A model generated the notes under the pieces. The model was not told the DNA's origin. It saw only the letters and a program-made list of their open reading frames with translations, and ran no database searches. The position numbers and the translations under genes are program-made. This document shows positions 2,327 through 64,000 of a stretch of DNA of 64,000 nt, one piece after another; positions within the stretch are counted from its first letter, which is position 1, and each line of letters opens with the position of its first letter. Origin of the DNA: Halarcobacter sp. (lineage in GTDB: Bacteria > Campylobacterota > Campylobacteria > Campylobacterales > Arcobacteraceae); the NCBI GenBank assembly GCA_048571215.1, contig CP182352.1, forward strand, positions 3,168,001-3,232,000, in the 5' to 3' direction.

Positions 2327-3411
2327 GAGAAGAGATATTTAATATTGATATGCATATAAAAAATTGTGAGTATTTAAAAACTATATTTAATGATAATGAG
2401 GTTTCTATAGAGAAAATTGATGATGGGATGTTAAATAATATTTATAAAATTTTTTCATCTAGTAAATGTGTAATTATCAAGCAATATCCCGATTATATAA
2501 TTAGAGATGACAAAAAGATTAAATTACCTTTAAATAGAGTAAATTTAGAATATTCTGCAATTAAAAAATTTAAAGAAAATACACCAAGAAATATCCTAAA
2601 AGTTCTATTTTTTGATGAAAAAAACTCTTTAATAATTTTACAGTATTTAGAAAACTATCTAACCTTAGAGTATCTAATACATAATTTTATTGCTTTTGAT
2701 AATATAAGCTTTAGACTAAGTGATTCAATAGCTCGTAATCTTGTTTTTAATTCCTTTAAGTTTTCACAAGATAAAAAAGAGTTTTATAATAAGTTTATTA
2801 ATTTGGATATGAAAAATTATTTACTGAATACCCTATTTTTTATTAATCCTTCAATAGTTGAGAAAAATAAAAAAATAAAAAAAAATCTAGATGAATTAGA
2901 ATATAAATTTATTAATAAAAATGAGACTTTATTACATGGAAATTTAAAAACTAGTTCAATTATGATTAGAAAAGAAAACTTCTTTCTAATTGATTTTGAT
3001 GCTTGCTTTTTAGGACCTTATGGTTTTGAATTATCTTATCTAATAGCATCATTTATAAAAGAGTATATATATTGTAAAAATATAATAAATAACTATGAAT
3101 ACGCAAAGTATTTATTAATTGAGTTCTCTAATATTATTGTAAAATTTGAAAAGAATTTTTCTAAGTATTATTTTGAAAAGAGTAAAAATAATTTAGATAT
3201 AAAAGAGATAATGAGTGATAGTTTTGCATATGGTTCTTTACAATTACTACAAACTGTAACAAAATTACATGTTTTAAATAAAGAAGTTCTTAAAGAAAAT
3301 GAACAAAATGAGTTATTAGAATTCACTAAACATATAAATAAAGTATCATTATTTATTTTAGAAAATTATAAAGATATAAAAAGAATAGAGGATCTATTAG
3401 TAATATTGTAA
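2323..3411 (+). CDS. APH/methylthioribose-kinase-like phosphotransferase, catalytic Asp replaced (HGN)
   Basis: DGMLNNIYKI, VIIKQ, LLHGNLK, LIDFD, GPYGFEL motifs. TTG start overlaps the upstream stop by 4 bp. Confidence 0.7.
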   Translation: MREEIFNIDMHIKNCEYLKTIFNDNEVSIEKIDDGMLNNIYKIFSSSKCVIIKQYPDYIIRDDKKIKLPLNRVNLEYSAIKKFKENTPRNILKVLFFDEKNSLIILQYLENYLTLEYLIHNFIAFDNISFRLSDSIARNLVFNSFKFSQDKKEFYNKFINLDMKNYLLNTLFFINPSIVEKNKKIKKNLDELEYKFINKNETLLHGNLKTSSIMIRKENFFLIDFDACFLGPYGFELSYLIASFIKEYIYCKNIINNYEYAKYLLIEFSNIIVKFEKNFSKYYFEKSKNNLDIKEIMSDSFAYGSLQLLQTVTKLHVLNKEVLKENEQNELLEFTKHINKVSLFILENYKDIKRIEDLLVIL

Positions 3412-4542: not shown

Positions 4543-4552
4543 ATTATTCCTT

Positions 4553-6475
4553 TTATTTATTTTTTGTAAAAGTTAGATTATTTAAAAAATCTTGTTCATT
4601 TATTAGGTTTAATATCCTTTTTTTTGAACTAATCTTTTCAACATATTGTTGCATAAAAATATATATATTAATAATCAATTTTTTTCCAAAAGGTAAAGAT
4701 AAAATTTTTCCTAGGTGTGGATGGATAAAAGAAGGCATATATTTTTGTAAAAGTTCATCTTCGACACTTAAAAAAGTTTTTACACTCCCTTTTTGACCTT
4801 GTCTTCCTGCTCGTCCAAATAGTTGTAAATCAACTCTTCTTGACTCATTTCTTTCAGTTACAATTACATGGAGCCCACCTAAGGAGTTACTATTATTTAA
4901 TAAGATTATATCTGTACCTCTACCTGCCATATTTGTAGCAATAGTTATGCTACCTTCTTCGCCTGCTTTTTCTATGATTTGAGCTTCTATTTCATGATTT
5001 AATGCATGTAAAACTGTACAGCTTAAACCTAAATTTTTAATTTTTCTTTCTAAAAGGTTTGCTTCTAAAATTGTTCTTGCTCCCACTAAAATTGGTCTTT
5101 TAAATGAGTGAATATATTCTATTTCTTTTGCAACTAAATCCCATTTTTCTTTTTTTGTAAAGGTGATTTCATCTTTATATATTTGAATTTGCTTTGAAAC
5201 TCTTAATGGGATTTTTACTATTGTTAAGTAATAAATCTGCCATAACTCTTTTTCAATATTTTGTAATGTACCACTCATTCCACAAATTCTTTTGTACAAT
5301 CTAAAAAACCTTTGAAAACTCATTTTGATATTTGTTTTTGTAGGTTTTGTAAGTGGAATTCCCTCTTTTGCTTCTACAGCTTGATGTAAACCACCACTCC
5401 AAGAACGACTATTCATAAGTCTTCCTGTTTTTTCATCAACTATTACAATTTTATCATCAACTATTACATACTGCTTGTTTAAATGGTAAAACTCTTTTGC
5501 TAAGATGGCTTGTTTCATAATATATTTTAATCTATAATCAACTCTCCAGGCTAAAGGGAAACTCTCTTTATATTTTTTTATTAAGTCAAATCCTGATTCA
5601 TTTATCTCCACACTATTGTATATTTTATTTATTTCATAATGTTCATTTATCTCTAATCTATCTAAAACTTTTTTTGCTTCTATAGAAGCATCTAAAAGCT
5701 CTTTATCTTCTGTTTGTATTGATATAATAAGAGGAGTTATAGCTTCATCAGCTAATACACTATCAGCTTCGTCAATGATAACTGTGTGTAAGGGTCTTAA
5801 TGTTCTTTGTACAGCTTTATCTTGTAGTTCGTACAATAATTCTTTAGAAGAGCCAAATTCATAATCTACTTTCATCTTATCTCTTAGGTAATCAGCTAAT
5901 ATATCATTGCTTGTTGCATATACTACATCTTTTTGGTAATGTAAAACTCTTTGTTCGTTTTCCATATCATTAGTGATATATCCAACCTCTACAAAGCACC
6001 TATTGTATAAAGGAGCTAGTAGTTGAGCATCTCTTGATGCTAAGTAATCATTTGAGGTTATTATATGGCAAGGTTCTCCCCTCCATGATAAAGCAATTGT
6101 AGCTATACATGCAGTGATTGTTTTACCTTCTCCTGTTGCCATCTCTATTATGTATCCATTATACATAGCAAGAGCACCCATTATTTGTACAGGGTAGGGT
6201 CTTTTTTGTATTTCTCTAAAGGAGGTCTCACTTATTAGGGCAAATGTTAATTTTAACTCCTCAAAGTTATCTTTTCTTAATAAAAATTTATCTTTTTGGT
6301 TTCTTAATTTTGATTCTAACTCTTCATCACTAACATCTTTAAATGTTAAAGATAGTGAATATATCTCTTGGGCCTGCTTTTTTATTTTTTTATAATTAAA
6401 AAATTTTCTTCTAAAAAAGCCTTTTATATTGTGAATGAATGAATCAGCATCTTTATATAATTTATTATTTTCCAT
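4553..6475 (-). CDS. secA: Short accessory SecA-like ATPase (640 aa)
   Basis: EMATGEGKT (Walker A), IIDEADSVL, GLHQAVEAKE, ATNMAGRGTDI, ESRRVDLQLFGRAGRQG. The protein ends shortly after the second motor domain, so the wing and C-terminal zinc-binding regions of housekeeping SecA are absent. Confidence 0.9.
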   Translation of the reverse strand: MENNKLYKDADSFIHNIKGFFRRKFFNYKKIKKQAQEIYSLSLTFKDVSDEELESKLRNQKDKFLLRKDNFEELKLTFALISETSFREIQKRPYPVQIMGALAMYNGYIIEMATGEGKTITACIATIALSWRGEPCHIITSNDYLASRDAQLLAPLYNRCFVEVGYITNDMENEQRVLHYQKDVVYATSNDILADYLRDKMKVDYEFGSSKELLYELQDKAVQRTLRPLHTVIIDEADSVLADEAITPLIISIQTEDKELLDASIEAKKVLDRLEINEHYEINKIYNSVEINESGFDLIKKYKESFPLAWRVDYRLKYIMKQAILAKEFYHLNKQYVIVDDKIVIVDEKTGRLMNSRSWSGGLHQAVEAKEGIPLTKPTKTNIKMSFQRFFRLYKRICGMSGTLQNIEKELWQIYYLTIVKIPLRVSKQIQIYKDEITFTKKEKWDLVAKEIEYIHSFKRPILVGARTILEANLLERKIKNLGLSCTVLHALNHEIEAQIIEKAGEEGSITIATNMAGRGTDIILLNNSNSLGGLHVIVTERNESRRVDLQLFGRAGRQGQKGSVKTFLSVEDELLQKYMPSFIHPHLGKILSLPFGKKLIINIYIFMQQYVEKISSKKRILNLINEQDFLNNLTFTKNK

Positions 6476-8628: not shown

Positions 8629-8631
8629 ATA

Positions 8632-10515
8632 CTACAACCAAAAATACATTCTAAGAAAATCAATTGTTTTATGGGTAGCTATCCAAATAACCCTTCTTTG
8701 TCCTATATTTATTTTAGCTACACCACTCATCCCTGGTCTCCACCAAGACTCAATAGGAGATAATGTTTTTGCTTTTAACATAAATACATTTCCATTTTTA
8801 CCATCTACTTGTGCAGTTGGAACAATATTTGTAACTTTTATAGGGAAATATAACTCTGGTCTACTTAATAGTTTTAGTTCACCCTCATCATTTATCTTAA
8901 TTTCATCAATATATTTTTCACTGATTTTAAATCTAATAAAGATATCTTTTGCATTTGCAATTTTAAGTAAAATATCTCCTTTTGAAACAGGTGCAGAAAT
9001 TAACTCTTTTTTATCACCTTCAATAATAACTCCATCAAATGGTGATTTTATTTTTGATTGATTTAAATAGTATTCAACTTTTTTTAAAGATGCTTTAGCT
9101 TGAATAACCTTTGCTATTGCTATATTCATATCTGCTAACTCATCTCTTGCTCTTGCTTTTTCTGCCTCTCTTGTATATCTAATTACATCTGCTTCCATTT
9201 CAAGTTGTTTTAATAATAACTCTTCTTCATCTAATTCAATTAAAGTTTCATCTTTTTTTATATAATCACCAGGATAATAATTAACATTTTTTATATAACT
9301 ATCATATGGAGCTTGTACATAGGCTATGTTATCAGTATCTAAAGTAGCAGTTACTTCTATCTTATATTCCCATTTGAAAAATATAGAATAAAGTAATACT
9401 AAAGAGATAAGAATACTAAAAAACTTCAATAATGTGTTATCGCTTCCTAAGAAATTTGCTAATTGTTTTTTTGTCCCATCTAATAGTTTTTTCCCAATCC
9501 ATCTATCTTCTTGTTGTAAATCATATAACCAAATATTTAATTGTTCTAAAGACAATTCTAGTAGAATAATATCTTTTTTATCAAAACTATCATCTAATTT
9601 TTCAAGGGTAACTACACCTATAACTTTATCTTCAATTTTTATAGGTATAGATAAAATAGTATTTAAAAGATTTATACGAGAGTAGTCCTCATGGGCTTTT
9701 GTTACTAAATTCGTATTATCAGTAGGTAAGTAGACAGTTTTTTCTTGATCTGCACACTCTTCATATACATTTTGTAATTTTTTAACTATTTCACTTTTCT
9801 CGTCAAATTTTTCTAAGTGGGATATAGCAATTAAGTTTATGTATTCATTTGTTTTCCAACCAATACTCACCCTAGAACTGTCAAATTTTAATGAAAGTTC
9901 ATTTACTAGCTTCATACATGCTAAGAGAAATTTCTTTTCATCTTTTATTAAGTTTAGTAATTCTAGTATCTCATAAATTCTATTATTTAATAAAGGGGTT
10001 TTCTCTTGAGTTTCTATGGGTAAATTTGTAGTTGATGACTTTCTATTAAAATATGCATAGTTTAAATAAACATCATTTATAAGTTGAGTTCTAACTACAG
10101 TTTCATTAAACTGCTGTGTATTTGCTCTGTCAATTATTATTGATGCGATAATAATTGTATTATCTAAATTTTCGATTTTAAAAGACAAGATGTATGCTTG
10201 TGAAAATTTATTTATTTTCAAATTAATAGGGGCATAAGAATATGAGTTTTTTAATGTTTTATCTCTATTCAATAAGATGGTTTTTGCAATCTCTTCAGAA
10301 CTATCATCTACTCCAATATTATCAATCAAATACTTTTGTTTATAATTCTCTTCAAATAGTTCTAAAACTAAGATATAAGAAGATTTAGTAACTTGTAATG
10401 TATTTTCTAAATAGAAATTCCAAAACTCTTCTTTTGTGCCCTCAAATTCTCTTAATGCTTTTATATTATTTAATACAACTAATACATCTGTACTATTAGA
10501 TACAATATTACTCAT
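8632..10515 (-). CDS. GAF-domain-containing HlyD-family periplasmic adaptor
   Basis: GAF-like segment (ILSIPIKIEDKVIGVVTLE), one TM helix (FFSILISLVLLYSIFF), then an adaptor (VQAPYDSYI...IKSPFDGVI...WRPGMSGVAKI). Confidence 0.8.
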   Translation of the reverse strand: MSNIVSNSTDVLVVLNNIKALREFEGTKEEFWNFYLENTLQVTKSSYILVLELFEENYKQKYLIDNIGVDDSSEEIAKTILLNRDKTLKNSYSYAPINLKINKFSQAYILSFKIENLDNTIIIASIIIDRANTQQFNETVVRTQLINDVYLNYAYFNRKSSTTNLPIETQEKTPLLNNRIYEILELLNLIKDEKKFLLACMKLVNELSLKFDSSRVSIGWKTNEYINLIAISHLEKFDEKSEIVKKLQNVYEECADQEKTVYLPTDNTNLVTKAHEDYSRINLLNTILSIPIKIEDKVIGVVTLEKLDDSFDKKDIILLELSLEQLNIWLYDLQQEDRWIGKKLLDGTKKQLANFLGSDNTLLKFFSILISLVLLYSIFFKWEYKIEVTATLDTDNIAYVQAPYDSYIKNVNYYPGDYIKKDETLIELDEEELLLKQLEMEADVIRYTREAEKARARDELADMNIAIAKVIQAKASLKKVEYYLNQSKIKSPFDGVIIEGDKKELISAPVSKGDILLKIANAKDIFIRFKISEKYIDEIKINDEGELKLLSRPELYFPIKVTNIVPTAQVDGKNGNVFMLKAKTLSPIESWWRPGMSGVAKINIGQRRVIWIATHKTIDFLRMYFWL

Positions 10516-10521
10516 ATATAA

Positions 10522-13032: not shown

Positions 13033-13036
13033 TATT

Positions 13037-14596: not shown

Positions 14597-14606
14597 AATC
14601 TTTTCC

Positions 14607-27000: not shown

Positions 27001-27003
27001 AAA

Positions 27004-57800: not shown

Positions 57801-60800
57801 TAAAGAACCAAAAACTTGCAGACTTCCTAAAATATCTAATTTTGCATACTCTACACTAGCTTGAATAATTTCAGTATCAAAATCAATTGTGATAAAATCT
57901 AGACCCTCTTTTGATTCTTGACCTGGTGCAAGTTGGTAGCCAGTAGATACTTGTAAACCATTTGTTTCTGCAAAACTTTGTGTATAATCTATATATGGCA
58001 TTGCAGCTAATAATGTAGCTTGAGGTGGCAAACCTTTGATTAAACTTGTATTGATATTTATCTCCACACCTTCTAGTGACGCCTCAACATAATCTTCCAT
58101 ACCTATTAATGCAGCTTGATCAACGCTTGCTTTTGCAGTAACAAATTGGATTAGTCTACTTTGTATAATATCAGTTGGAGTCATAATTGCTGTTGCAAAA
58201 TTAACATTATCTATAAGTATTCCAGTAGCATTTGGATTTATTATTTCATAATCATTGTATGGATTACCATCACCATCAGAATCATAATCTAAATAGATAT
58301 CTTTCTTGTATGGACCACCAATACCAGCAAAACCAACCAAGTTTGCACCACCTAAAGTCATGATTGAAACCTCTTTTTCTCCACTAGGATAAAGTGTTTC
58401 AAAGTCTCCACTATCTACGAATACATTTGTTACTGTACCTTTTTCAAAAGAAAGAGAACCACTAAGATATAAGAATTCACTAACTTGAATAACTGCATTT
58501 CCTATTTCTGCACTTATTTTTTCATTCCCATCATAATCAATGGTCATTGATGTATCACCACCAGTTGGTATGACAAAGCCACCAGTAGAAGCAAAACTAT
58601 TTTCCCAATCTATAACAGCAGGACCCATATCTAAAGGCCATGAAGGTCCTGTATTTATTTGAATATCAATATCTCTAACATCTATTGTTAATACATTTTC
58701 CAAGCCCATAAATGCAGCTTTATCTGCAGTTGCTCTTACTGCTATAAATTCATCTAGGATTGGATTAATTATAGGAGATGTTGTAGTCATTATTGCCATT
58801 GCAAAATCAAGATTATCTATTGTTAAACCAACTGCATCATTATTGATTACATAGTCATTGTAAGGATTTCCATCCCCATCAGTGTCTGTAGATAAATCTT
58901 CATCAGCTTTATATGGTCCATTAATACCTACAAATGCTTGAACATTTGAAGCCCCAATAGTCATAGAAGCTACTTCAACTCCTTTAAGTAAAGAGTATGT
59001 TGAACCTGTTGTTGCTGCATCAAATAATGGATCTATAATAGGTTCAAAGTAATCTTTTTGACTAGCAGGTAATCCTGTTGCTATGTCTACTAGGTATGTA
59101 GGGCCTTTTTCGAAACTCATCCCTCCCTGAATATAGAGGAACTCACTAACTTGAAGTTTAGCTTGACCTATATCTACTCCAATTCTTTGGTTCCCATCAA
59201 AGTTTATATCCATTGAAGTTCCACCACCAGTTGGTATACTAAATATACCATCACCAGCACCAGCACTTGTCTCAAAGCTAGATGACCAATCAATAACAGC
59301 TGGTCCATATCCACCTAGCCATTCTGGTCCATCATTTACATTTATTGTAATATCATAAGCTTCAAGTACTAAGTTATCTCCAAAACCTACTAGTCCACCC
59401 ATTGCTGCTGTTGCTTTTACTGCTGTAAATCTATCTAATACTGGATTGATTATTGGTGATGTTGTATCCATAATCGCCATACCAAAATCTAAATCATCAA
59501 TTGTTACACCCATAGCATCATTATTTATTACATAGTCATTATAATTATTGCCATCTGTATATATTGAAGATAAAGTTCCATCAGTATTATAGATTAAACC
59601 TTTATATTTACCATTTGAATCTTTAGCCCAAGTTGTTAAATCTATTTCAGAACCTAAATCTTCATCAGCTTTATATGGTCCATTTAATCCTACGAATGCT
59701 TGTATATTAGATGCTCCAATAGTCATTGAAGCTACTTCAACATCATTTAACATTGAGTATGTTGAACCTGTTGCTGCTGCATCAAATAATGGATTTACTA
59801 AAGGACTTAATGTACTTTCTAAGTTTGCTGGTAAGCCTGTTGCTACATCTACTAAATATGTAGGACCTTTCTCAAATGCAAAGCCACCTTGTAGATATAC
59901 AAATTCACTAACTTGAAGTTTAGCTTGACCTATATCTACTCCAATTCTTTGGTTCCCATCAAAGTTTATATCCATTGAAGTTCCACCACCAGTTGGTATA
60001 CTAAATATACCATCACCAGCACCAGCACTTGTCTCAAAGCTAGATGACCAATCAATAACAGCTGGTCCATATCCACCTAGCCATTCTGGTCCATCATTTA
60101 CATTTATTGTAATATCATAAGCTTCAAGTACTAAGTTATCTCCAAAACCTACTAGTCCACCCATTGCTGCTGTTGCTTTTACTGCTGTAAATCTATCTAA
60201 TACTGGATTGATTATTGGTGATGTTGTATCCATAATCGCCATACCAAAATCTAAATCATCAATTGTTACACCCATAGCATCATTATTTATTACATAGTCA
60301 TTATAATTATTGCCATCTGTATATATTGAAGATAAAGTTCCATCAGTATTATAGATTAAACCTTTATATTTACCATTTGAATCTTTAGCCCAAGTTGTTA
60401 AATCTATTTCAGAACCTAAATCTTCATCAGCTTTATATGGTCCATTTAATCCTACGAATGCTTGTATATTAGATGCTCCAATAGTCATTGAAGCTACTTC
60501 AACATCATTTAACATTGAGTATGTTGAACCTGTTGCTGCTGCATCAAATAATGGATTTACTAAAGGACTTAATGTACTTTCTAAGTTTGCTGGTAAGCCT
60601 GTTGCTACATCTACTAAATATGTAGGACCTTTCTCAAATGCAAAGCCACCTTGTAGATATACAAATTCACTAACTTGAAGTTTAGCTTGACCTATATCTA
60701 CTCCAATTCTTTGGTTCCCATCAAAGTTTATATCCATTGAAGTTCCACCACCAGTTGGTATACTAAATATACCATCACCAGCACCAGCACTTGTCTCAAA

Positions 60801-63800
60801 GCTAGATGACCAATCAATAACAGCTGGTCCATATCCACCTAGCCATTCTGGTCCATCATTTACATTTATTGTAATATCATAAGCTTCAAGTACTAAGTTA
60901 TCTCCAAAACCTACTAGTCCACCCATTGCTGCTGTTGCTTTTACTGCTGTAAATCTATCTAATACTGGATTGATTATTGGTGATGTTGTATCCATAATCG
61001 CCATACCAAAATCTAAATCATCAATTGTTACACCCATAGCATCATTATTTATTACATAGTCATTATAATTATTGCCATCTGTATATATTGAAGATAAAGT
61101 TCCATCAGTATTATAGATTAAACCTTTATATTTACCATTTGAATCTTTAGCCCAAGTTGTTAAATCTATTTCAGAACCTAAATCTTCATCAGCTTTATAT
61201 GGTCCATTTAATCCTACGAATGCTTGTATATTAGATGCTCCAATAGTCATTGAAGCTACTTCAACATCATTTAACATTGAGTATGTTGAACCTGTTGCTG
61301 CTGCATCAAATAATGGATTTACTAAAGGACTTAATGTACTTTCTAAGTTTGCTGGTAAGCCTGTTGCTACATCTACTAAATATGTAGGACCTTTCTCAAA
61401 TGCAAAGCCACCTTGTAGATATACAAATTCACTAACTTGAAGTTTAGCTTGACCTATATCTACTCCAATTCTTTGGTTCCCATCAAAGTTTATATCCATT
61501 GAAGTTCCACCACCAGTTGGTATACTAAATATACCATCACCAGCACCAGCACTTGTCTCAAAGCTAGATGACCAATCAATAACAGCTGGTCCATATCCAC
61601 CTAGCCATTCTGGTCCATCATTTACATTTATTGTAATATCATAAGCTTCAAGTACTAAGTTATCTCCAAAACCTACTAGTCCACCCATTGCTGCTGTTGC
61701 TTTTACTGCTGTAAATCTATCTAATACTGGATTGATTATTGGTGATGTTGTATCCATAATCGCCATACCAAAATCTAAATCATCAATTGTTACACCCATA
61801 GCATCATTATTTATTACATAGTCATTATAATTATTGCCATCTGTATATATTGAAGATAAAGTTCCATCAGTATTATAGATTAAACCTTTATATTTACCAT
61901 TTGAATCTTTAGCCCAAGTTGTTAAATCTATTTCAGAACCTAAATCTTCATCAGCTTTATATGGTCCATTTAATCCTACGAATGCTTGTATATTAGATGC
62001 TCCAATAGTCATTGAAGCTACTTCAACATCATTTAACATTGAGTATGTTGAACCTGTTGCTGCTGCATCAAATAATGGATTTACTAAAGGACTTAATGTA
62101 CTTTCTAAGTTTGCTGGTAAGCCTGTTGCTACATCTACTAAATATGTAGGACCTTTCTCAAATGCAAAGCCACCTTGTAGATATACAAATTCACTAACTT
62201 GAAGTTTAGCTTGACCTATATCTACTCCAATTCTTTGGTTCCCATCAAAGTTTATATCCATTGAAGTTCCACCACCAGTTGGTATACTAAATATACCATC
62301 ACCAGCACCAGCACTTGTCTCAAAGCTAGATGACCAATCAATAACAGCTGGTCCATATCCACCTAGCCATTCTGGTCCATCATTTACATTTATTGTAATA
62401 TCATAAGCTTCAAGTACTAAGTTATCTCCAAAACCTACTAGTCCACCCATTGCTGCTGTTGCTTTTACTGCTGTAAATCTATCTAATACTGGATTGATTA
62501 TTGGTGATGTTGTATCCATAATCGCCATACCAAAATCTAAATCATCAATTGTTACACCCATAGCATCATTATTTATTACATAGTCATTATAATTATTGCC
62601 ATCTGTATATATTGAAGATAAAGTTCCATCAGTATTATAGATTAAACCTTTATATTTACCATTTGAATCTTTAGCCCAAGTTGTTAAATCTATTTCAGAA
62701 CCTAAATCTTCATCAGCTTTATATGGTCCATTTAATCCTACGAATGCTTGTATATTAGATGCTCCAATAGTCATTGAAGCTACTTCAACATCATTTAACA
62801 TTGAGTATGTTGAACCTGTTGCTGCTGCATCAAATAATGGATTTACTAAAGGACTTAATGTACTTTCTAAGTTTGCTGGTAAGCCTGTTGCTACATCTAC
62901 TAAATATGTAGGACCTTTCTCAAATGCAAAGCCACCTTGTAGATATACAAATTCACTAACTTGAAGTTTAGCTTGACCTATATCTACTCCAATTCTTTGG
63001 TTCCCATCAAAGTTTATATTTAAAATTTCAGAACCAGCTTTTACTTCATATCCATTAGTACCAAAAGAAGATTGAAAATCAACTGCAGGATCCCATAATT
63101 TATAAAGAAAAGTACTTAGAAAATCTAAATCTGGCACTGAGATATCTGGGATTGATAAGTTTGGAAGAGTAATATCAGGAATAGCAATATCTATATCAAA
63201 TTCTGGAATTGAAATATTAGGCATACTAATTGTTGGCATAGATATGGTTGGTAAACTAATTGATGGCAAACTTAAACTTGGTAAACCAATATCAGGAAAT
63301 TCAATATCAGGAAATTCAATATCAGGAAATTCAAAATCTGGAAGTTGAATAGTTGGAATAGAAATATCAGGTATAGTAATAGTTGGTATTTTTATTGCTG
63401 GAAAATCAATAGTTGGAAGTGTTATTTTGAATCCTAATTCAGGAATATCAATTTCTGGTAAAGTGATACTTGGGATTTGAATATCTGGCAAAGTGATACT
63501 TCCTAATGATAAATCAAAATCTGGTATAACAATATCAGGAATGGAGATGCTAGGAATAGTAATATCTGGTATATTGATATTAAACCCTAAGCCAGGAATT
63601 TTAATATCAGGAATAGTGATACTGGGAATTGTAATATCAGGAATACTTATCACTAAATCAGGGAAATCTACAGTTGGTACTTTAATTTCCGGAAAACTTA
63701 TCTTTGGAATACTAATTGAAGGGATACTAATTGAAGGGATACTAAAGTTTTGTAAGCCTGCTATTACACTATTTTTAAAACTACTATTTATATTTATATC

Positions 63801-64000
63801 TATATCTTTAGCTTCAGTTTGAATACCCTCTTCAAAACCAATTAATTTACCACTATCTGCATGACCATTTAATGCATAAAAATTCATATTGTTTAAACCA
63901 GCATCAATATTTACATTAGAGCTAGAATCTGGGACATCATATGTGCTCATAAAGGTAAATGCCAAATCTAAGTTATCAATTAATAAACCTACGGCATCTT
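27873..64000 (-). CDS. Giant multi-domain repeat protein, >12,040 aa (5' end outside window)
   Basis: The frame stays open past the TTG at 63965 to the window edge, reading DAVGLLIDNLDLAF, which matches the internal motif DAVGLTIDNLDFA. Contains Pro-rich pentapeptides, 254-aa repeats, RTX-like nonamers, a helical stalk and the duplicated C-terminal block. Confidence 0.9.
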   Translation of the reverse strand, partial: DAVGLLIDNLDLAFTFMSTYDVPDSSSNVNIDAGLNNMNFYALNGHADSGKLIGFEEGIQTEAKDIDININSSFKNSVIAGLQNFSIPSISIPSISIPKISFPEIKVPTVDFPDLVISIPDITIPSITIPDIKIPGLGFNINIPDITIPSISIPDIVIPDFDLSLGSITLPDIQIPSITLPEIDIPELGFKITLPTIDFPAIKIPTITIPDISIPTIQLPDFEFPDIEFPDIEFPDIGLPSLSLPSISLPTISMPTISMPNISIPEFDIDIAIPDITLPNLSIPDISVPDLDFLSTFLYKLWDPAVDFQSSFGTNGYEVKAGSEILNINFDGNQRIGVDIGQAKLQVSEFVYLQGGFAFEKGPTYLVDVATGLPANLESTLSPLVNPLFDAAATGSTYSMLNDVEVASMTIGASNIQAFVGLNGPYKADEDLGSEIDLTTWAKDSNGKYKGLIYNTDGTLSSIYTDGNNYNDYVINNDAMGVTIDDLDFGMAIMDTTSPIINPVLDRFTAVKATAAMGGLVGFGDNLVLEAYDITINVNDGPEWLGGYGPAVIDWSSSFETSAGAGDGIFSIPTGGGTSMDINFDGNQRIGVDIGQAKLQVSEFVYLQGGFAFEKGPTYLVDVATGLPANLESTLSPLVNPLFDAAATGSTYSMLNDVEVASMTIGASNIQAFVGLNGPYKADEDLGSEIDLTTWAKDSNGKYKGLIYNTDGTLSSIYTDGNNYNDYVINNDAMGVTIDDLDFGMAIMDTTSPIINPVLDRFTAVKATAAMGGLVGFGDNLVLEAYDITINVNDGPEWLGGYGPAVIDWSSSFETSAGAGDGIFSIPTGGGTSMDINFDGNQRIGVDIGQAKLQVSEFVYLQGGFAFEKGPTYLVDVATGLPANLESTLSPLVNPLFDAAATGSTYSMLNDVEVASMTIGASNIQAFVGLNGPYKADEDLGSEIDLTTWAKDSNGKYKGLIYNTDGTLSSIYTDGNNYNDYVINNDAMGVTIDDLDFGMAIMDTTSPIINPVLDRFTAVKATAAMGGLVGFGDNLVLEAYDITINVNDGPEWLGGYGPAVIDWSSSFETSAGAGDGIFSIPTGGGTSMDINFDGNQRIGVDIGQAKLQVSEFVYLQGGFAFEKGPTYLVDVATGLPANLESTLSPLVNPLFDAAATGSTYSMLNDVEVASMTIGASNIQAFVGLNGPYKADEDLGSEIDLTTWAKDSNGKYKGLIYNTDGTLSSIYTDGNNYNDYVINNDAMGVTIDDLDFGMAIMDTTSPIINPVLDRFTAVKATAAMGGLVGFGDNLVLEAYDITINVNDGPEWLGGYGPAVIDWSSSFETSAGAGDGIFSIPTGGGTSMDINFDGNQRIGVDIGQAKLQVSEFVYLQGGFAFEKGPTYLVDVATGLPANLESTLSPLVNPLFDAAATGSTYSMLNDVEVASMTIGASNIQAFVGLNGPYKADEDLGSEIDLTTWAKDSNGKYKGLIYNTDGTLSSIYTDGNNYNDYVINNDAMGVTIDDLDFGMAIMDTTSPIINPVLDRFTAVKATAAMGGLVGFGDNLVLEAYDITINVNDGPEWLGGYGPAVIDWSSSFETSAGAGDGIFSIPTGGGTSMDINFDGNQRIGVDIGQAKLQVSEFLYIQGGMSFEKGPTYLVDIATGLPASQKDYFEPIIDPLFDAATTGSTYSLLKGVEVASMTIGASNVQAFVGINGPYKADEDLSTDTDGDGNPYNDYVINNDAVGLTIDNLDFAMAIMTTTSPIINPILDEFIAVRATADKAAFMGLENVLTIDVRDIDIQINTGPSWPLDMGPAVIDWENSFASTGGFVIPTGGDTSMTIDYDGNEKISAEIGNAVIQVSEFLYLSGSLSFEKGTVTNVFVDSGDFETLYPSGEKEVSIMTLGGANLVGFAGIGGPYKKDIYLDYDSDGDGNPYNDYEIINPNATGILIDNVNFATAIMTPTDIIQSRLIQFVTAKASVDQAALIGMEDYVEASLEGVEININTSLIKGLPPQATLLAAMPYIDYTQSFAETNGLQVSTGYQLAPGQESKEGLDFITIDFDTEIIQASVEYAKLDILGSLQVFGSLAFTKRSETVRLTDQREVQVISLSLGVVNAYGFIGVGDYYQDTNNDGRITEADTTNSSAIGLAITDLDLGATLMREVGTLTNVYFAVATSIDRVGLVGTSDVVEVEIEQLEFNANISSIGIGVVTVDFSKSTWIDENGTTQTGYAIETGDKANPIVLKYEEFVIDISGELSLQTMGVFSLQAVFQLSVDTEGLTLFIDGDGIIGNDSTISITAAVSALIYIDKDGLALTARLNAGIDLGPVMTLNIEQLDLTINTTGKDITYVVPEKFLDKVDYETLTILAKPEAYQDDDMSFYVMLEAKGTLNLLSALDLKGDIDFLFTDTRIVLSVGAILDLPVIEPIGVTGTLGITEGGFYGSLMLGNPFNGGSPLIDATAFTLSGGFLLQVNTTSSKQSVKALEIDANGQLTGKFVDEDIAASTLFIAGTANIKIAGAISLYGEISLKVNEEGFEADAALKLDLAEFGELNVDGAISILNTADEGAVFAMSLETDISFGLASIIGIDANAKVQINTSKNNVYAGVEKGTLFNLELDGKLNILALKANFEGSISIVDNVFELRIDDASVDFFGILNVGISGYLRSDGYFLIEGEAGFNIDLGVIKITSGVEMTFGNTIEKGPIVGLVLYGSVDVHINLGLFEINETLAGFRGEIELTAASAYLQASVTVAGISFSGDITWSWGDLPIIATQVGDALYLNMGDRWLERETPANRAIGNLYEDVIHETYNISEDKNGNILLKSMGVEKTYSGVKTIYGSGGEGNDVIIVDPSVTKTLIFDGGDGKDTFIIAGGASNSIIRGGSGNDLLVGGGTSNIKYYGEDGNDKFIGGDVSEIIDMGGGINTVNSAGGDDIINITENGTVTIDGGSGYDKVFIDILSDKDLIVGNRLFNYGGITINTTDSLEMIQVRDTSTSTTIKNNSQGDTWGNTGLTVLSNGTINVSDLEFIAPTARLSLVSNGIIGDIVTDVKEINIVNTSNTNGNITIIEKNDLVVVDDNKANGGIYTVNGNIDITLNAYESQLTLSSGAISTSTSGGDISIIADDIELESGNDKVIGTGNLTIKAKSSSQNYNLGSAAQTTYGIDKSDSLANGFMHLSMQDFSAFKNGFSHITIGDETTSTTTYLGDLEDSIIGNFSFNAKLTDYLSIFAGRINVVGDVKSTDKIEIVARYMEVRKTNTHAPLGTPDSGIYAKDIDIKLDEQLILTGWLRADDSINVNIHSTTGANPIVGYGTEANSFTADQGSVFATYNSGATITLNTAASIYSATTIKAFGSNSTITMSSNTGLTVLEGAVIAAREANSSINLSADDYLHINSGGSITAGAKWNQDTKEFEKTGADSSITLETTGEMKLAGAITSSGAMNLIGGGSDSDHADYFDTIPGENLTYVDYTKALEDSINSGTLPQEIIDALNTNNIKLGSNPSITSISNYTPFSSLSDEQKDQVALALGYTIYNPSDKSYYFNEDFTGTKQLITTLINGDGPNIESGYTYYDGLVFIDLDNNTLATSFKQGVSADYDNDLINWGSVGAPSADASFEQLTTAQKIVVAQSLGYSTDDEGVSFYNYNADAGKKYLKTFTEGILTDYKNEDIYWGDITAPNDSATFSSLTKEQKIVVAQSLGYAVYEDVYVNLNLEDGKQIVKSTTAGGDFQVRNINWGGVKAPEDGTTFESLTLAQQEVVLTSLEYSRYNDTIYYNTNAADGKKLLTTLVEGDDYSNSSIDWKDVNKPADDAKFKDLNALQKEIVLNEKGYRLFTGVVYTNGEDFKLTFVEGDGGDYTNDSITWSKVEVPDDDVLFEDLNASQKYYVLNQTGYSEYSNKFYYKADAAENKKLLSSFEEGIDYSNSNMDWGTTSFSSTNRWIVSDGENSYILYAEDITGDGVAEKIRVQEKHELVGQRGYGFLLTGTLTSLQDNTDMVISGAEDTIVRGNINLYGENSSLVVQSDKWVYWEGEAEVTGDISILGGVDLNTFDITNTVKETSVFIHATSKLNNTSSGNNITVIGGKDVEIHGQVASGVNLDIGNINFAGNDSTVYIGAGEQVLINTAILASKSITIETLNAPSSDDLNKSLIITSAGGLTVGGETSDNSGGSINISTVGDIEAIGMILSGGTVKQTFDSQGNLISEDITWSDEYSTVTIESLGKVSIAGDTETQSGDIVEVGGIIQANNEITIIGGVSNDHIGIYLPGGAKLATHDADGVITLKAYDDALIYGLIAAGASIDTYYDPTGTTLGYMINNYGGNSKVIIESKSQVEIGRDIVAGALVDIRGGNGTQRDIDETLGEDGHFFNLKDQGLVIGAGLDIKTLQENSTITLSSSGDLAILAPVWNDELLASTFLEYANGQLTQDVTLSLEIDLGTHIVKGDVLISANDTLDNNSISDLKADIQNAINSTAFTVTQSLSGTPALNSTQTIENKVTVRVVDGRLMLTSDYSFDIKSNSINLDKLGFATGVDLSSVSSIAVDASQKGSVVNLGKNGLENGSIYLSNWIKAHSGLNFYSGEKPTDGGNQDFYFGAFGTIETLSGSIYLNPGDNGVLLGDLIARGAGADIILESKNTLEIKGSITAQDDIFITAGQVLNEGETSIETFGTSSITTLDVGGNIRIQGYNDVVINSTIGKDKDGIVNTNLENLTILAYKGDLSIEKQSGYIETGAQIILSGRNIDVHGVILSSRNTSSLYDEELSFIADKGVNLQGVVELDGSMKIQTTEDIVLNNLKLIIDNPNQHLKLYSDGDIYLGDTTPQDGVESAGAVILDANGYVDVRAEGDIFVGFDAQILSKNEIKITANNLVAIGTIRAGASFDTDANKSKWLASLGKISITTQGSTILGGNGLDENNNLITWGANIESTGSISITTGEDVNRVGLSVSSESIIAVDVTTNGQFADTADGVINIISDGDIQIYGNIKSTDDGADLNITSYSLLLIDGVVHADDKIVLKGGTSTTGAGIIINSFITDDNDDYISGGSVKTSDSGSIELYSQNSILIKGNLGEVVEVNNENVALTDSIYIEVLASDVTIMGNVEAKNNIEVISKNINIIDGHIFARSANSSITLRASETFYTAALPEEGYVRADNLVHIIASTARIYGIVETTGNNSRLLINVGKDLIITGTVKSKNDIDLNAGIDTDNTNAVLEGVISSVSLTNGNILISKQGVITAIDGDITAQAGNDITVNADSSVSGDVKVEIPVVTTYTKEYTVVSGSIPHAEQIQVPKITWVSTRLTEQVGEEKVVVGNYYITMDVSLEMVGYYNPNATDGNKFREILIEGIDYLNDNIDWANAGNEATPNRTAESVTSDYKSSDYKTFTGLNDAQKQAVLNATGYKAVYQFSYTNALKNQVRNGTISDPQVYVPEWKDAGQKVYNIQIDGWKDKYILMPEGAQEDILRVVSQGEAKYLTGDSTDIGNTGTWKSASEAGVKFVNVNGNEKASFVKGTDYTNNAAISWETYGAEIPIVYKKGATTLSDLSKNIFVDVSIEDLISEITVSGSQYNGQTINWSAYGATAPSSNTDFEDLSYTQQYAVLFELDYYKENLVLGTDYNNADIPWGLLNATAPSETTEYANLSTVQKQAVMQSLGYYLEKIDFDNLTYAAKVKEATKLGYTASIDETKEWADLTFSQKMAVAGTLGYSLDTSGVGEYVGSYVDYSEVIYTQDKSRFDGTTTTYNTTDKNNSSEWSGRNSEVDYDSSAARWKVEYDTSAKANTNAIDTVKNTYTDGTGYRVYDLDGEVIAGNADTRVLSANRDPNWTWESTEMTNSSDPYANDPYNTVRYTDNIYALSTYDSVLDNDTSSLTQIDSSTRTNVKVGSFKYWGDWNDRGQVRYYSWAGSTSYSSFDWENGTRGWHENWADSFTGDGSNGHQIQTRGWYNSSGIDSMHWYARTRDEYTTIVTETQYDYEYKWTSNTHNIYDNRIKLEYQLVTQSHNIYDDRPIFETKTIEKENISYSNETVWTYETVYDTQTETYTETNYEEIDILGGEFAGETISGSNINFVSNGTTNLTGIISATDDINIVSKDTLTITGVNANGATVETVSKINATNISIDSKNTIDISDSVAFTITESANINSKYDISLGSETAFNQTVKVVEDDTVGGYTYGTLEISAKDITVKSGTNIAISANLTAQDSITLNAGDSTVGSINDGSIVGDYETNLKVENTNSDITLTTGSIGGDVILTGSNLEAKDTISMNIESGKLFHSLGLVTSDTLDVIAESQISANTSVNSVDLTLTDKGDISIKNDKNLTITKAQAQDGEIKIDVFGDAIVKDVKTLGTSDKNDFKLNTYEIGSATANVTIENITLGLRGDAIFDIQGNISQTTGVINSDEIVIDVFTNVTLLTKASKISLESNAIGDVNITQSGAKSLTLEDVIVYNGDFTLVSDGAIDIKNLISKTDTNSPNNGTTWVDNVISINNTTSATQKDISIQNIKFGSYEIINGEYFTDTYDEINEVTVSTKLTSINSTGDLIIKSAGAIYESFSDTDADIVADKITLEAKTDITGLELIANELTKITTESGNIELYESDRDIEVTKGLVILEVSSALNTTSNINIIAQNSIFVKENSSLTADNIRLESLEKNIIVSKPTSGDSLHYTTGIGFAADGVVDLYRFFNASGSIEYRAGDKFQFGTDTPGETTALLPADITSDSIILETGSSLSITGTLTAKNYVELVSAQNINITGDIVSSTGGYIGQVKIIAEGTKTVEKINNAGAQFNTGYIIINTTGIDSTNFEIRAKEDISINLESNFYLSGFIGGLDGFDSAQNISISLDDGDTNTSEKLTVTGGIIASNNTLKMNASEISSDDSSIFIGKDLIVTTKGGMLLNTLVDTITAQSTTTGNIIINEADDVKLLDIYAYDGKIDITAGGKLDAYKVITAKDTADNLVITSSPENNTDLINAKTALDAAISSLASAQAAYDKAVADDAALTTAQTNLDNISSSTEAANKNTTQTALTNASAAVATAQATVDTKLAEYNTAKDAYNSAVAAYDLAYAFNLIVPNVTNAQTNISDFKDAIASGNASSILNKSTNATATTNGLVTEASSIDLASKMDNDARLLVDYTTTKTDLQALANSLKAIVDGSSTLVSNAQVVVDITSVKTVTTQLLTVADEVKTAITNLQSGTVTTTLKDAMTTAFNNAKAIQTSVANLVSSLADGTDAKTKAQSAKTYADSLVSQATAAKAKSDATQNTTAQMVTDIGTLRGSISTLSNDTNSALTTANTNLSSAITNYNNNYDLANVLTTISTNYDLNTKNTNKATTLAESDTKKTAYTDANAILSEKKNLKITAQINYDNAATAYITLQNQLTSIKDAAQTKADLTDASALNDTLTTAQSTKDNAQSSYDTLLSASQAAQNNANSLMDEEGYKSSFTGNNIFLSSVGDMRVDYVESGSLAGSLKENTVVVLDFAGSLTELDDDQNEVDVFAKQVYIKGSGATIKMMNTADDVGEGLNDIEVANTSTTNAVVSDTTVTNSFVNSYDGDKVLIIPYIVTTDSSIEATGSLTVAKFKSSGNGENITFTAGTDLAIVSELNVGNGTDGGTINLNAANGGISLGGTVTADTLNVTAKDSFSVKSEINNLELDVTGAGDVNVEQNGDLTVTSLAMNGGDIDFDVIGDVVFDSITGIVGNINITATGSVTIKGLSDAKDVVITSGSNVTLTLDADTLKIISNGEVIVNETNDVTINTLTRNDTTANVTLNANGNMVLNDKIIATGTSTVNISAGKDNTGTLTLNSPISSENADISLSAGSGIIMNEQADINSASAISIDAGTGKLTMSVETVIQTSDIITITSQDHITIGKLISTYTGNLSAVNITSTSGAILDAGEGAADITATTNLVTLKSATGIGTGVFGSIETKVDTIDITNSTSKDISFTELDGLKINSIVQGGSGNIDFETINGEIIVQGTGITSQDGSLSIYAGGTNSFFTLNSDINTSGGSVEVITEQGNLILKEGIKVDGIGGVTLIASSGSILNDIENLLWLKDGSGKYDFDDSLVWAFKNFKFQTDVNTGEIKVVNAQSYDELTNDTILRKAGGSYIQTQGLLTLEAKNSIGGRPSSDAVDPTSETADQKEAREALEKIALSIVIDASELTMYSANKDNVFITTMDGVEVIGSDKAGSKGGATNVTSLGGTQEITNALDASGEDIDITSEDITITSEIRSVGANLNIKASDPTSNKKVFIGTTIDDTTGSMYLDSTELGFIQEGFNSVILGDETSRNIIIFGDQDDSSNVDINLKNSLVVNNPNLGGEMYIYDNLIGGEGTSLSIYGSGHTLNFGSGGSDTAISLADDVLISDSIVVTSNDSITAGTDGTGNITLGASTTHRLDGNAGTTDTLNLNANGGSIVVNSTVGYTDQLEGLSILDTSDNSEGAENVTFKGEVNVDGDIYIYATGTVTFNQQLTLSGNLTIIGADLVVFEDGVSAGGDILIEGNEINFKGGEESITSTGAGTLTLRPTNTSYDMSISSPPLETTANTLNITATEMGTLTDGFSKIIFGHKDIDNHTKSTAVGEVRVGVIASNQLTFKDNVEIYGGSIKIEDYSNEYNKLIASGDITLDAINNITISNYIEAQSSDITLYSQSGKISQINDSTDGLTSEELVSNTLTVSSQTGIDLMFTKVTTLDAQNLGTGNIKINELASGGDIVVNRLSQSATGGTTSLTTQNGNITIASGQNGVSNAGSGSLTIQAKDTGIDTVVNVNETITSAGENVNLKADGNININANITHTYAAGAINITSYNDSIVMADATSASSTNGIINYTANDNIKLSLVSTAANVNLSATSGNISDNLSAETANVIADVLTINSNTGVGTSVDDINTTVSNIDITNATSGDIYVKETDTLTIDAITQTLAGNISVVATLGDITQDGDINSTSGTITLSSIAGSIIMNNDTLTKSSNSADITLNAANNIKLSLVSTTANVNLSATNGYISDNLSAETANVIADVLTINSNTGVGTSVDDINTTVSNIDITNATSGDIYVKETDTLTIDAITQSSNLGVVNIVSSLGDITQDGAISSVAGNIDVVSSAGSIIMNSGKNTTSTSGVVTYTANTNVALSVIDTSSNVNITATNGNISDNLDTEDANIKGTTTVVSLVAATGIGASGDADIDTTIASLTASNTTSGDIFIQESDDLSITSLSALGTTGNAVVSTINGAITAGTITANNNILLTTEDVANDEAFDITLNGIVTSNNGNISIVSDNDVLVNANIIASTATKTIQVIALNDITMADGTQIATTNSGNILLDAGNDVNIESINAGTGSVSITALGNLVDTDAIDTTNSDVDIQASSLLLDITGFIGTATNHIETTVTTLSAKGAGLFVSESDGLSIDSVSVDVNGVNSDGSITATANSAQENLVSTDKLILVSASGDIDVTSNATVSSNGDTLLKADNITLSSALSSTSGALSIITGGTFAQNANITTVGTVDVQANAISMASTSKTDATAANVRYASTTTLSLGQIVTTSDVSLLASSISDANANTNNITADELKLTVSGSTATTLDYIETDISTLSSNGGSLFITQAGNLTINETSAISVTTINTDASTTNTEDALQSNISSSGEVAITSTTGSITITDGKNIIAQDDITLNAANNIKLSLVSTTANVNLSATNGYISDNLSAETANVIADVLTINSNTGVGTSVDDINTTVSNIDITNATSGDIYVKETDTLTIDAITQSSNLGVVNIVSSLGDITQDGAISSVAGNIDVVSSAGSIIMNSGKNTTSTSGVVTYTANTNVALSVIDTSSNVNITATNGNISDNLDTEDANIKGTTTVVSLVAATGIGASGDADIDTTIASLTASNTTSGDIFIQESDDLSITSLSALGTTGNAVVSTINGAITAGTITANNNILLTTEDVANDEAFDITLNGIVTSNNGNISIVSDNDVLVNANIIASTATKTIQVIALNDITMADGTQIATTNSGNILLDAGNDVNIESINAGTGSVSITALGNLVDTDAIDTTNSDVDIQASSLLLDITGFIGTATNHIETTVTTLSAKGAGLFVSESDGLSIDSVSVDVNGVNSDGSITATANSAQENLVSTDKLILVSASGDIDVTSNATVSSNGDTLLKADNITLSSALSSTSGALSIITGGTFAQNANITTVGTVDVQANAISMASTSKTDATAANVRYASTTTLSLGQIVTTSDVSLLATTITNNLISTAPFNNVKADELKITASTLGTNASNLKTDLATLSANVSGDVFVKEANAVNIGQTSAITVTTIGTDASTSNTIDALQTKLSSLGNLVLQASGVITTLDITGNIEASGNILVKSATNITSNAQILSTGGNITLDASANININDNVTTQTANKTIDIFSTAGNVIMSDASQVSTSDSNIRVKAKDFSISSLNAGTANVSLFLTGVFSDSGDTNTDITANKLRVYLSGAGVVGANTQNIETSINVLSAVVNKNGLYLDNSKDILIDNVEAISVNKVGTNGLTTARTDDAQDSINSTGTVSLIANGSILDRADNSVSIISDKLILDATNGIGTQANNLNTTVSNIDITNATSGDIYVKETDTLTIDAITQSSNLGVVNIVSTLGDITQDGAISSVAGNIDVVSSAGSIIMNSGKNTTSTNGVVTYTANTNVALSVIDTSSNVNITATNGNISDNLSAETANVIADVLTINSNTGVGTSVDDINTTVSNIDITNATSGDIYVKETDTLTIDAITQSSNLGVVNIVSTLGDITQDGAISSVAGNIDVVSSAGSIIMNSGKNTTSTNGVVTYTANTNVALSVIDTSSNVNITATNGNISDNLSAETANVIADVLTINSNTGVGTSVDDINTTVSNIDITNATSGDIYVKETDTLTIDAITQSSNLGVVNIVSSLGDITQDGAISSVAGNIDVVSSAGSIIMNSGKNTTSTSGVVTYTANTNVALSVIDTSSNVNITATNGNISDNLDTEDANIKGTTTVVSLVAATGIGANGDADIDTTIASLTASNTTSGDIFIQESDDLILDSITTSGNVDITASNLTNTATSLLSSSLLSLDVTSADINTKVSTLTATASGDVTINESDDLILDSITTSGNVDITASNLTNTATSLLSSSLLSLDVTSADINTKVSTLTATASGDVTINESDDLILDSITTSGNVDITASNLTNTATSLLSSSLLSLDVTSADINTKVSTLTATASGDVTINESDDLILDSITTSGNVDITASNLTNTATSLLSSSLLSLDVTSADINTKVSTLTATASGDVTINESDDLILDSITTSGNVDITASNLTNTATSLLSSSLLSLDVTSADINTKVSTLTATASGDVTINESDDLILDSITTSGNVDITASNLTNTATSLLSSSLLSLDVTSADINTKVSTLTATASGDVTINESDDLILDSITTSGNVDITASNLTNTATSLLSSSLLSLDVTSADINTKVSTLTATASGDVTINESDDLILDSITTSGNVDITASNLTNTATSLLSSSLLSLDVTSADINTKVSTLTATASGDVTINESDDLILDSITTSGNVDITASNLTNTATSLLSSSLLSLDVTSADINTKVSTLTATASGDVTINESDDLILDSITTSGNVDITASNLTNTATSLLSSSLLSLDVTSADINTKVSTLTATASGDVTINESDDLILDSITTSGNVDITASNLTNTATSLLSSSLLSLDVTSADINTKVSTLTATASGDVTINESDDLILDSITTSGNVDITASNLTNTATSLLSSSLLSLDVTSADINTKVSTLTATASGDVTINESDDLILDSMTTDGNVTISANNITNNTTLVADKLSLDVTTASLDTDIAVLKAIASGDVSINELDYLVVEDVQTSSNVTIQTQDSMKIGTISANTVTLKTQDGRITDYYNNQNTNITAQNLNMVGKGAFTKGEYLLNSTSLNNLSNNAINTDVRNLFIANKQEAKIDSKIGSSTSVFLVEKDNYSLQVVNKTIVTPKLSQIETTMDLTNSYSAVEQWSFAKEIDYELLNSSYVMKTHHVQAQENIQTRVTSLFESINNPTYVNHTSNVVNTQTVQTSITDVLNPISLNYSNYTSNFNENLIIDRIDSELFEYWIEDIAL
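28801..31097 (-). repeat. 189-bp tandem repeat, 12 full units plus a partial unit
   Basis: Same unit as 15535-17453; recurs from 28801 to 31069. Confidence 0.95.
31248..32464 (-). repeat. 432-bp tandem repeat, ~2.8 units
   Basis: Marker sequence at 31384, 31816 and 32248. Confidence 0.9.
33488..37244 (-). repeat. Two ~1.7-kb direct copies with 2046-bp period
   Basis: 34270/36316 and 34801/36847 are offset by 2046. Confidence 0.9.
55207..55565 (-). other. Cluster of RTX-like Ca-binding nonamers inside the giant protein
   Basis: GGEGNDVII, GGDGKDTFI, GGSGNDLLV, GEDGNDKFI, SAGGDDIIN, GGSGYDKVF. Confidence 0.8.
59143..63019 (-). repeat. 762-bp (254-aa) intragenic tandem repeat, 5 units
   Basis: gcttgacctatatctactcc at 59161, 59923, 60685, 61447, 62209 and 62971. 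Confidence 0.95.
63121..63745 (-). repeat. Degenerate 15-bp (I/L/F-P-x-I-x) pentapeptide repeat tract
   Basis: IPSISIPSISIPKISFPEIKVPTVDFPD...FPDIEFPDIEFPDIGLPSLSLPSISLP over ~205 aa. Confidence 0.85.

Follow-up and report, generated by a model that had tools for sequence, protein, structure and literature searches.

A gene locus linking giant LEPR-XLL proteins to a TolC, M50 and SecA module without an ABC transporter in Halarcobacter

Described systems and the position of the locus

A gene module with secretion-type parts but no ABC transporter was described in 2015 (Kamneva, Poudel and Ward; PMC4452313). In the accessible parts of that paper, it consists of a SecA_DEAD protein without SecA_SW, M50-HlyD, GAF-HlyD and HlyD proteins, and sometimes an OEP protein, with SapC as its cluster 4; SecA was proposed to act as the ATPase and the M50 protein as the pore. 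Its S2 Table lists Methylobacterium extorquens AM1 and Ruegeria pomeroyi DSS-3 among the carriers. The same parts describe no substrate, leader, RRE, catalytic analysis or SecA-free clade. Here, we analyzed a window of 64,000 nucleotides from Halarcobacter sp. (C1:3168001-3232000), taken from a complete genome of 3.61 Mb with 28.5% GC. In addition to the canonical SecA encoded elsewhere in this genome, the window encodes a second SecA_DEAD protein without SecA_SW, adjoining M50-HlyD, GAF-HlyD and HlyD proteins, as well as OEP and SapC, and no ABC. Judged by gene content, the locus is a full member of the 2015 module and neither a classical type I secretion system (T1SS) nor an accessory Sec system. 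An earlier note on this DNA had proposed that a SecA motor feeds giant proteins through an M50-containing inner-membrane complex into TolC; since both the module and the idea of a SecA motor with an M50 pore were published in 2015 (PMC4452313), this central idea is not new. New here are the link between leader and module, the RRE and the intact zinc site in the M50 protein, the SecA-free clade, and the cargo-size correlation. The 2015 module came with neither cargo nor signal; leader, RRE, and intact protease now make point-mutation tests possible.

Giants of similar design are known from Chlorobium chlorochromatii, where Cag_662-665 include two tandem LEPRxLL giants with an identical C-terminal part, together with SapC and TolC (bioRxiv 10.64898/2026.03.19.712371). 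According to the accessible parts of this preprint, the giants are produced, exit the cell and reach the partner cell, are retained in the periplasm when the partner is absent, and share an expression cluster with a horizontally acquired secA. Its authors propose that a sap-like T1SS exports the giants C-first, and these parts do not mention M50. According to the supplements of the 2015 study, as far as accessible, the same Chlorobium genome encodes a second SecA as well as module adaptors, namely proteins of clusters 2 and 3 (PMC4452313). The two giants of our window, G1 and G2, show the same shared-C-terminus design and likewise occur with SapC and TolC, but the module genes are scattered in Chlorobium, whereas they form one operon-like unit here. 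If our reading holds, the inner-membrane part so far missing for the giants of the Chlorobium symbiosis would come from the module.

Further likenesses concern only some of the components. The locus shares the conduit of TolC and adaptor with type I secretion, but it contains no HlyB-type ABC. Classical T1SS substrates carry an uncleaved C-terminal signal, usually with C-terminal RTX repeats; in the window, GGxGxD motifs are absent from G2 and number five in G1, all in its first half, and the C-termini end in another motif. As in a peptidase-containing ABC transporter (PCAT), an inner-membrane protein is (here by prediction) responsible for binding and cutting an N-terminal leader; however, the window has no ABC, a zinc site-2 protease and an RRE replace the C39 domain, three adaptors are present, and the giants of 0.4-1.3 MDa compare with a cargo of at most ~10 kDa given for active-C39 PCATs in the accessible parts of the source (PMC8277102). 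RRE fold and HExxH membrane protease also recall RiPP RRE proteins and M50 maturation proteases (lasso B1, 6jx3; daptide, NF041824), but the RRE-M50 part of the window is fused to a periplasmic adaptor and is predicted to pair with a giant protein instead of a small precursor. In SecA2 systems, too, a second SecA is tied to very large proteins, which these systems export; the short SecA of the window, however, scores below every SecA2 model cut-off, lacks the scaffold/wing region, and is encoded by a stand-alone gene linked to TolC and adaptors, with no SecY2 seen in the locus. SecA-like domains without scaffold and wing were also reported within Omnitrophota giant proteins (bioRxiv 10.1101/2023.11.21.568195, accessible parts). 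A literature search, with subscription papers and bioRxiv supplements outside its scope, yielded nothing linking LEPR-XLL, RRE or DUF4347 to the module, and the accessible parts of PMC11451748, PMC12153261, PMC13721041 and PMC10952558 contained nothing on the module.

Gene order, conservation and ABC transporters

All cluster genes from G1 to the kinase-like gene are located on the minus strand, at the positions already given in the earlier note. Recomputing exactly reproduced this co-orientation and the seven intergenic gaps: 10 bp between giant and lipoprotein, 4 bp to TolC, 0 to the adaptor, 6 to the GAF-adaptor, 3 to the M50-adaptor, -1 to SecA, and 10 to the kinase. The lipoprotein (13037..14596; lipobox by sequence reading, aa 17-21) was assigned to no family and is accessory, occurring in 4 of 80 related loci. 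The TolC-family outer-membrane channel (11413..13032; OEP, E 3e-21) is the single gene of its type in the genome. It is followed by a periplasmic adaptor (10522..11412) with an HlyD-type domain and an N-terminal signal peptide, and by the GAF-adaptor (8632..10515; GAF, E 7e-5), in which one membrane helix (aa 362-380) precedes a periplasmic HlyD-type part and which likely carries two cytoplasmic GAF-like domains. A SapC family gene (27004..27759; Pfam, E 1e-71), unnamed in the earlier note, sits between G1 and G2; SapC, the RRE domain, and the intact protease site are additions to that note. SapC is likely an accessory and probably cytoplasmic protein, with no signal peptide seen in its sequence. 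Its structure model (pLDDT 89) reached a best Z of only 2.8 against solved folds; PDB gave no sequence match, Foldseek no match at E 0.001, and the Atlas SapC clusters only, so that the model possibly represents a new fold.

The closest relatives of the M50 protein of the window are found in Campylobacterota. An M50 alignment confirmed at least 598 related loci, the best 80 of which were analyzed, with parts called by best BLAST match to the window proteins. These 80 loci contained the GAF-adaptor in 76 cases, the short SecA in 71, the adaptor in 55, TolC in 48, SapC in 23, the lipoprotein in 4, and the kinase in 1. For the 47 of them flanked by 5 kb or more on each side, the corresponding numbers were 47, 43, 38, 33, 19, 4, and 1, and no HlyB-type ABC was found. 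The gene arrangement is thus far beyond chance (GAF-HlyD in 47/47 and short SecA in 43/47 well-flanked loci). Loci of the module span Pseudomonadota, Planctomycetota, Verrucomicrobiota, Thermodesulfobacteriota, Chlorobiota, and Campylobacterota. Two clades were distinguished: clade I, to which the window belongs, and a sister clade II without an adjacent second SecA.

The earlier note had reported that no ABC is present in the window, and indeed no ABC_membrane match fell inside it, the eight matches of the genome all being located elsewhere. The neighborhood search scoring ABC presence, which that note had suggested, pointed in the same direction: a HlyB-type ABC was found in none of the 80 related loci (best 80 of at least 598) and in none of the 15 sister-clade loci, and short ABC ATPases of 251-431 aa occurred in three of the 80. 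Together with the leader distribution described below, this upholds the claim of an ABC-free TolC/adaptor/M50 machine linked to giants. An HlyB-type ABC encoded elsewhere might still provide pore and energy, with M50, GAF and SecA proteins merely processing or regulating. We regard this as clearly improbable, although the genome itself encodes four T1SS ABCs and such an ABC, above the TIGR03375 cut-off, occurs elsewhere in 13 of 20 genomes with the module: each of the four local ABCs is accompanied by an adaptor, a TolC and a giant of its own, the 80 and 15 loci contain none, and in one genome (G477; a single 3.1-Mb chromosome with the module and five leader frames) no TIGR03375 match was obtained at E 1e-90 with 34 of 49 candidates scored, and TIGR01842 gave weak matches only. 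Genome-wide absence as a proof of ABC independence mostly failed, as most genomes hold T1SS ABCs.

The four complete classical T1SS loci of this genome are located near 550 kb, 573 kb, 1,081-1,116 kb, and 3,570 kb, with giants of 2,563-7,303 aa. A further ORF of 4,978 aa appears filamentous-haemagglutinin-like by sequence reading.

Returning to an exporter without ABC, we lean slightly towards the view that the locus is a dedicated type-I-like system, with the RRE-M50-adaptor and the GAF-adaptor as predicted gate and the LEPR-XLL giants as cargo; that the module exports leader-bearing proteins at all appears very likely. In its overall working, it would resemble a peptidase-containing type I exporter built from other parts. 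The module bears on how bacteria export proteins of 10,000-36,000 residues.

Giant proteins, leader and C-terminal motif

G1 (27873..64000, minus strand, with its start at 65075 outside the window) is complete at 12,400 aa, its gene extending 1,075 bp beyond the window, so that the giant is indeed longer than 12,000 aa, as the earlier note had expected. A basic N-region is followed by the LEPR-XLL leader (aa 43-51), a unique body of ~8,500 aa with the five GGxGxD motifs, a Thr/Ser/Asn-rich repeat stalk of ~3,900 aa, and an aromatic-acidic C-terminal motif. G1 contains zero Cys and no clear membrane helix, and no Pfam family was found in the two parts scanned. G2 (14607..26885, minus strand, 4,092 aa) combines its own leader region of ~150 aa with a stalk and C-terminus almost identical to those of G1 (~99.8% DNA identity to the last third of G1). 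No Pfam family was assigned to the giants, and their relatives mostly lack a protein name.

The possibility that G2 is an assembly duplicate was rejected, because contig depth approximately doubles at the start of the shared part (44 to 109, 13 to 36, 58 to 140, and 18 to 39 in four runs from at most two samples of one study, from which this DNA possibly stems) and two contigs part at ~26,420, the G2 junction. The shared part forms a near-perfect 12-kb direct repeat (14607-26426 versus 27873-39206), whose internal 189-bp and 2,046-bp units differ in number; recombination between the copies could delete SapC or swap N-termini. The longest leader-bearing open frames observed in module-bearing genomes comprised 28,355 aa (G426:C30), 23,847 aa (G474:C1), and 20,892 aa (G428:C1); the length of 20,892 aa is also that of the leader-bearing frame located immediately behind the short SecA in the complete genome of a Vreelandella aquamarina strain (L038).

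The LEPR-XLL motif of G2, a proposed export signal, is encoded at 26712..26762 (minus strand). Both giants scored above the NF012209 cut-off of 17 bits (25.3 and 23.7 bits), and among the 4,130 ORFs of the genome only G1 and G2 displayed a LEPR-like motif within the first 150 aa. To follow the leader across genomes, we used a profile of 38 residues built from 18 leaders, 17 of which match NF012209 and 9 of which match PF07595 (Planc_extracel) weakly. The profile found a match in 70 of 80 M50-positive genomes and none in the other 10; after removal of 13 genomes that had contributed rows and of one with an identical row, 56 of 66 remained. Among M50-negative genomes from the same phylum as the window (n=397), a single weak match was obtained (E 5e-4). 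The independent model NF012209 matched 2 of 401 genomes, both M50-positive. Within one family of 111 genomes (that of G474), none of which had provided profile rows but whose members are kin and thus not independent, the leader was detected in 15 of 26 M50-positive versus 0 of 85 M50-negative genomes; the 11 M50-positive genomes without a match here, like the 10 in the wider set, are to be seen in light of draft assemblies and a 38-residue profile. Leader frames in this family were found within 50 kb of the M50 gene in 17 of 21 cases. As judged from these sequence profiles, the LEPR-XLL leader tracks the M50/GAF/TolC module, a link which is new here. If the leader is indeed its signal, the module could also be a route for planctomycete extracellular proteins, given the weak PF07595 matches of 9 of the 18 leaders.

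At the other end, the last 12 codons of G1 and G2 encode an aromatic-Trp-x-Glu motif, also found in L012, L017, L026, L041, L056, and other loci. Only 2 of 1,849 ORFs of this genome possess it. In clade I, it was detected at 12 of 25 upstream giant ends, counted with a pattern derived from the same sequences, and in its strict form in 9 of 40 G2 relatives, 21 of which carry the LEPR-XLL leader. Such a motif fits C-first export and stands against our proposal of an N-first route. The main rival explanation accordingly runs the same machine in reverse: the C-terminal motif would start C-first export, the RRE would catch the leader last as a tether, and M50 cleavage on a GAF-sensed cue would release the protein. 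Besides the motif counts, the 3,900 C-terminal aa common to G1 and G2 speak for this order of events, which was also proposed for Chlorobium in the accessible parts of the preprint (bioRxiv 10.64898/2026.03.19.712371). We nevertheless consider it unlikely, as the leader is common to both clades but the motif is missing from the examined ends of clade II cargo and from 13 of the 25 in clade I, and as the motif pattern was drawn from the very sequences in which it was counted.

Predicted gate, short SecA and the SecA-free clade

For N-first export, the predicted gate centers on the RRE-M50-adaptor (6475..8628, minus strand; Peptidase_M50, E 1e-6; HlyD-type domain). Its layout comprises an RRE fold (aa 16-103), a HExxH site (H209, E210, H213) with D311, and a MacA/MexA-like part (aa 445-700); seven hydrophobic segments fit an RRE inside and an adaptor part outside. 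In the structure model (pLDDT 81), the N-domain forms a three-stranded sheet followed by three helices and resembles the lasso-peptide B1 protein with leader (6jx3_B; Z 8.9, rmsd 3.4, 84 aligned), the protease core resembles RseP (Z 8.4, rmsd 3.4, 127 aligned), and the periplasmic part MacA/MexA (Z 14-15); Z values near 8-9 are only modestly over background. PqqD matches were obtained for 3 of 30 relatives. HExxH, placed in a membrane helix, and NxxPxxxxD, which contributes the third zinc ligand, were both retained by 255 of 257 relatives with a length of 600 aa or more and invariant in 30 of 30, which argues for a protease that is likely active, of the site-2 type by its sequence, and not a mere pore. 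At E 1e-30, relatives of the M50-adaptor numbered 3,906 among 50%-identity clusters, not all of them necessarily full module members.

The RRE is predicted from the model to be the leader-binding domain. Co-folding of M50(1-345) with the G2 leader lends weak support (0.47 versus 0.02 for the best control; contact agreement of at least 83% between runs, partner pLDDT at least 53). Among solved pairs, 116 of 157 reached the mark applied, as did 2 of 215 mismatched ones, but 18 of the 157 solved pairs and both mismatches did so at or below 0.60; as RRE-leader complexes have already been solved, structural likeness may explain the pass. It appears rather likely that the cytoplasmic RRE would bind the LEPR-XLL leader of an unfolded, possibly still growing chain. 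Whether the chain would then thread N-first between the membrane helices of M50- and GAF-adaptor, with the M50 site cutting off the leader nearby, we consider evenly balanced. Quite likely, the three adaptors would form one mixed periplasmic funnel into TolC.

An apparent M50-SecA-adaptor frame of 1,654 aa (L130, G543:C4 ~406,800-411,800) was rejected as Rosetta-stone evidence for an M50-SecA fusion, since it includes out-of-frame stretches and most likely reflects a frameshift error.

RREs are RiPP parts, and the N-half of the M50-adaptor is similar to the daptide maturation protease (NF041824, E 3e-41, under the cut-off). Possibly, then, the module exports a small peptide in RiPP fashion, for example the cut leader, and the giants exit otherwise. 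This seems very improbable to us: the loci as annotated (ORFs below 90 aa were not called) showed no recurring small precursor or modifying enzyme, the giants gave no autotransporter or TPS family match, and cargo size tracks the SecA add-on. Export of the giants themselves, as favored above, leads to the question of what the short SecA contributes.

The short SecA (4553..6475, minus strand, 640 aa; SecA_DEAD, E 9e-83, no SecA_SW match) keeps the ATPase motifs and the preprotein-binding domain, but ends 80 aa past motif VI; the C-terminal 240 aa with wing, two-helix finger and tail are missing. Motif VI was located in 62 of 67 short SecA sequences, all 62 of which end 67-96 aa later, compared with 324 aa in canonical SecA. 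A canonical SecA of 871 aa is encoded elsewhere in the genome. Wing and two-helix finger of SecA have a role at SecY. The truncated SecA construct N68 reportedly has raised ATPase activity. The short SecA resembles this construct (PMC5603524, accessible parts), and the role of the wing at SecY is also stated in the accessible parts of the 2015 paper (PMC4452313).

These features bear on a two-step route, in which the short SecA would pass the giants to SecYEG, the M50 protein would act as signal peptidase, and adaptors and TolC would cross the outer membrane only. A canonical SecA is present and a basic N-region lies ahead of the motif. The periplasmic retention of the Chlorobium giants (accessible parts of the preprint) does not fit strict one-step export, and it is this observation that keeps the two-step route alive. 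Nevertheless, we judge it clearly improbable, because both leaders lack a hydrophobic core, wing and two-helix finger are missing in 62 of 62 short SecA proteins with motif VI, clade II has no adjacent second SecA, and two of the adaptors are inner-membrane proteins with cytoplasmic domains.

Despite the same cassette and leader, an adjacent second SecA was found in none of the 15 loci of clade II, which does not support SecA as the defining motor of the system, the role given to it by the earlier note. In a quick tree of 94 M50 rows with midpoint root, the 15 SecA-free M50 proteins, which retain the zinc motifs, formed one side of a branch (SH-aLRT 100). In three Campylobacterota genomes, clade II consists of an M50-adaptor with 26% identity, TolC, adaptor, and GAF-adaptor; each genome has a single canonical SecA, and the cargo is a leader-bearing cadherin/Ig protein of 1,471-2,551 aa, with DUF4347 in two of them. 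In the G474 family, a short SecA adjoins 25 of 26 clade I (high-scoring) M50 genes, the remaining one being at a contig end, but 0 of 12 clade II (low-scoring) ones, and it was not among the matches listed for the 85 M50-negative genomes. Five well-flanked clade I loci lack an adjoining short SecA as well; clade I loci of this kind, mostly from Phycisphaerae, include L073, L078, L079 and L013 and, with short flanks, L065 and L080. Full-length GAF-adaptors of clade II mostly measure ~430-470 aa versus a median of 627 aa, as would fit if one GAF-like domain had been lost. Leader frames had a median of 7,608 aa in clade I (n=16) versus 2,395 aa in clade II (n=6), with kin that are not independent.

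Because the sister clade has cassette and leader without an adjacent second SecA, and smaller cargo, SecA is best seen as an add-on for the longest substrates, not as core; by these sequence comparisons, an invariant core is made up of RRE-M50-adaptor, GAF-adaptor, adaptor, TolC, and leader. Folding of repeats outside the cell would pull the chain, sufficiently for 1,500-3,200 aa in the SecA-free clade, and the clade whose cargo typically measures 4,000 to more than 15,000 aa would add the truncated SecA as an ATP-driven feeder on the gate, not on SecYEG, likely docked on the extra GAF-like domain, with SapC as likely chaperone; we see about equal chances for and against this proposal. The SecA-free clade thereby poses the sharper puzzle, a TolC channel for proteins with no recognized energizer in the cassette. 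On a wider scale, it could go either way whether these loci represent a widespread secretion class, in which TolC would be gated by an RRE site-2 protease and a GAF adaptor without ABC, RND or MFS pump, LEPR-XLL/Planc_extracel would be the cleavable signal, and one clade would work without a dedicated ATPase while the other recruited a SecY-independent SecA motor for the largest proteins of bacteria (open frames reaching 28,000 aa).

The methylthioribose-kinase-like gene (3397..4542, minus strand; 197 bits versus a cut-off of 275), which the earlier note had listed among the co-oriented genes, was rejected as a part of the system, being found in 1 of 80 related loci (best 80 of at least 598). 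It converges and overlaps by 15 bp with a second paralogue on the plus strand (2323-3411); the two are 25% identical, and both score under the family cut-off. The plus-strand paralogue is preceded by a Cys-containing ORF of 331 aa (1331-2326) without family. Directly upstream of G1 follows what we take, from its sequence appearance, to be an ATP-grasp/alpha-E/transglutaminase-like cluster (window-relative 65305-75995), and beyond it presumably, by the same kind of label, a type I CRISPR-Cas-like operon (window-relative 76975-85647).
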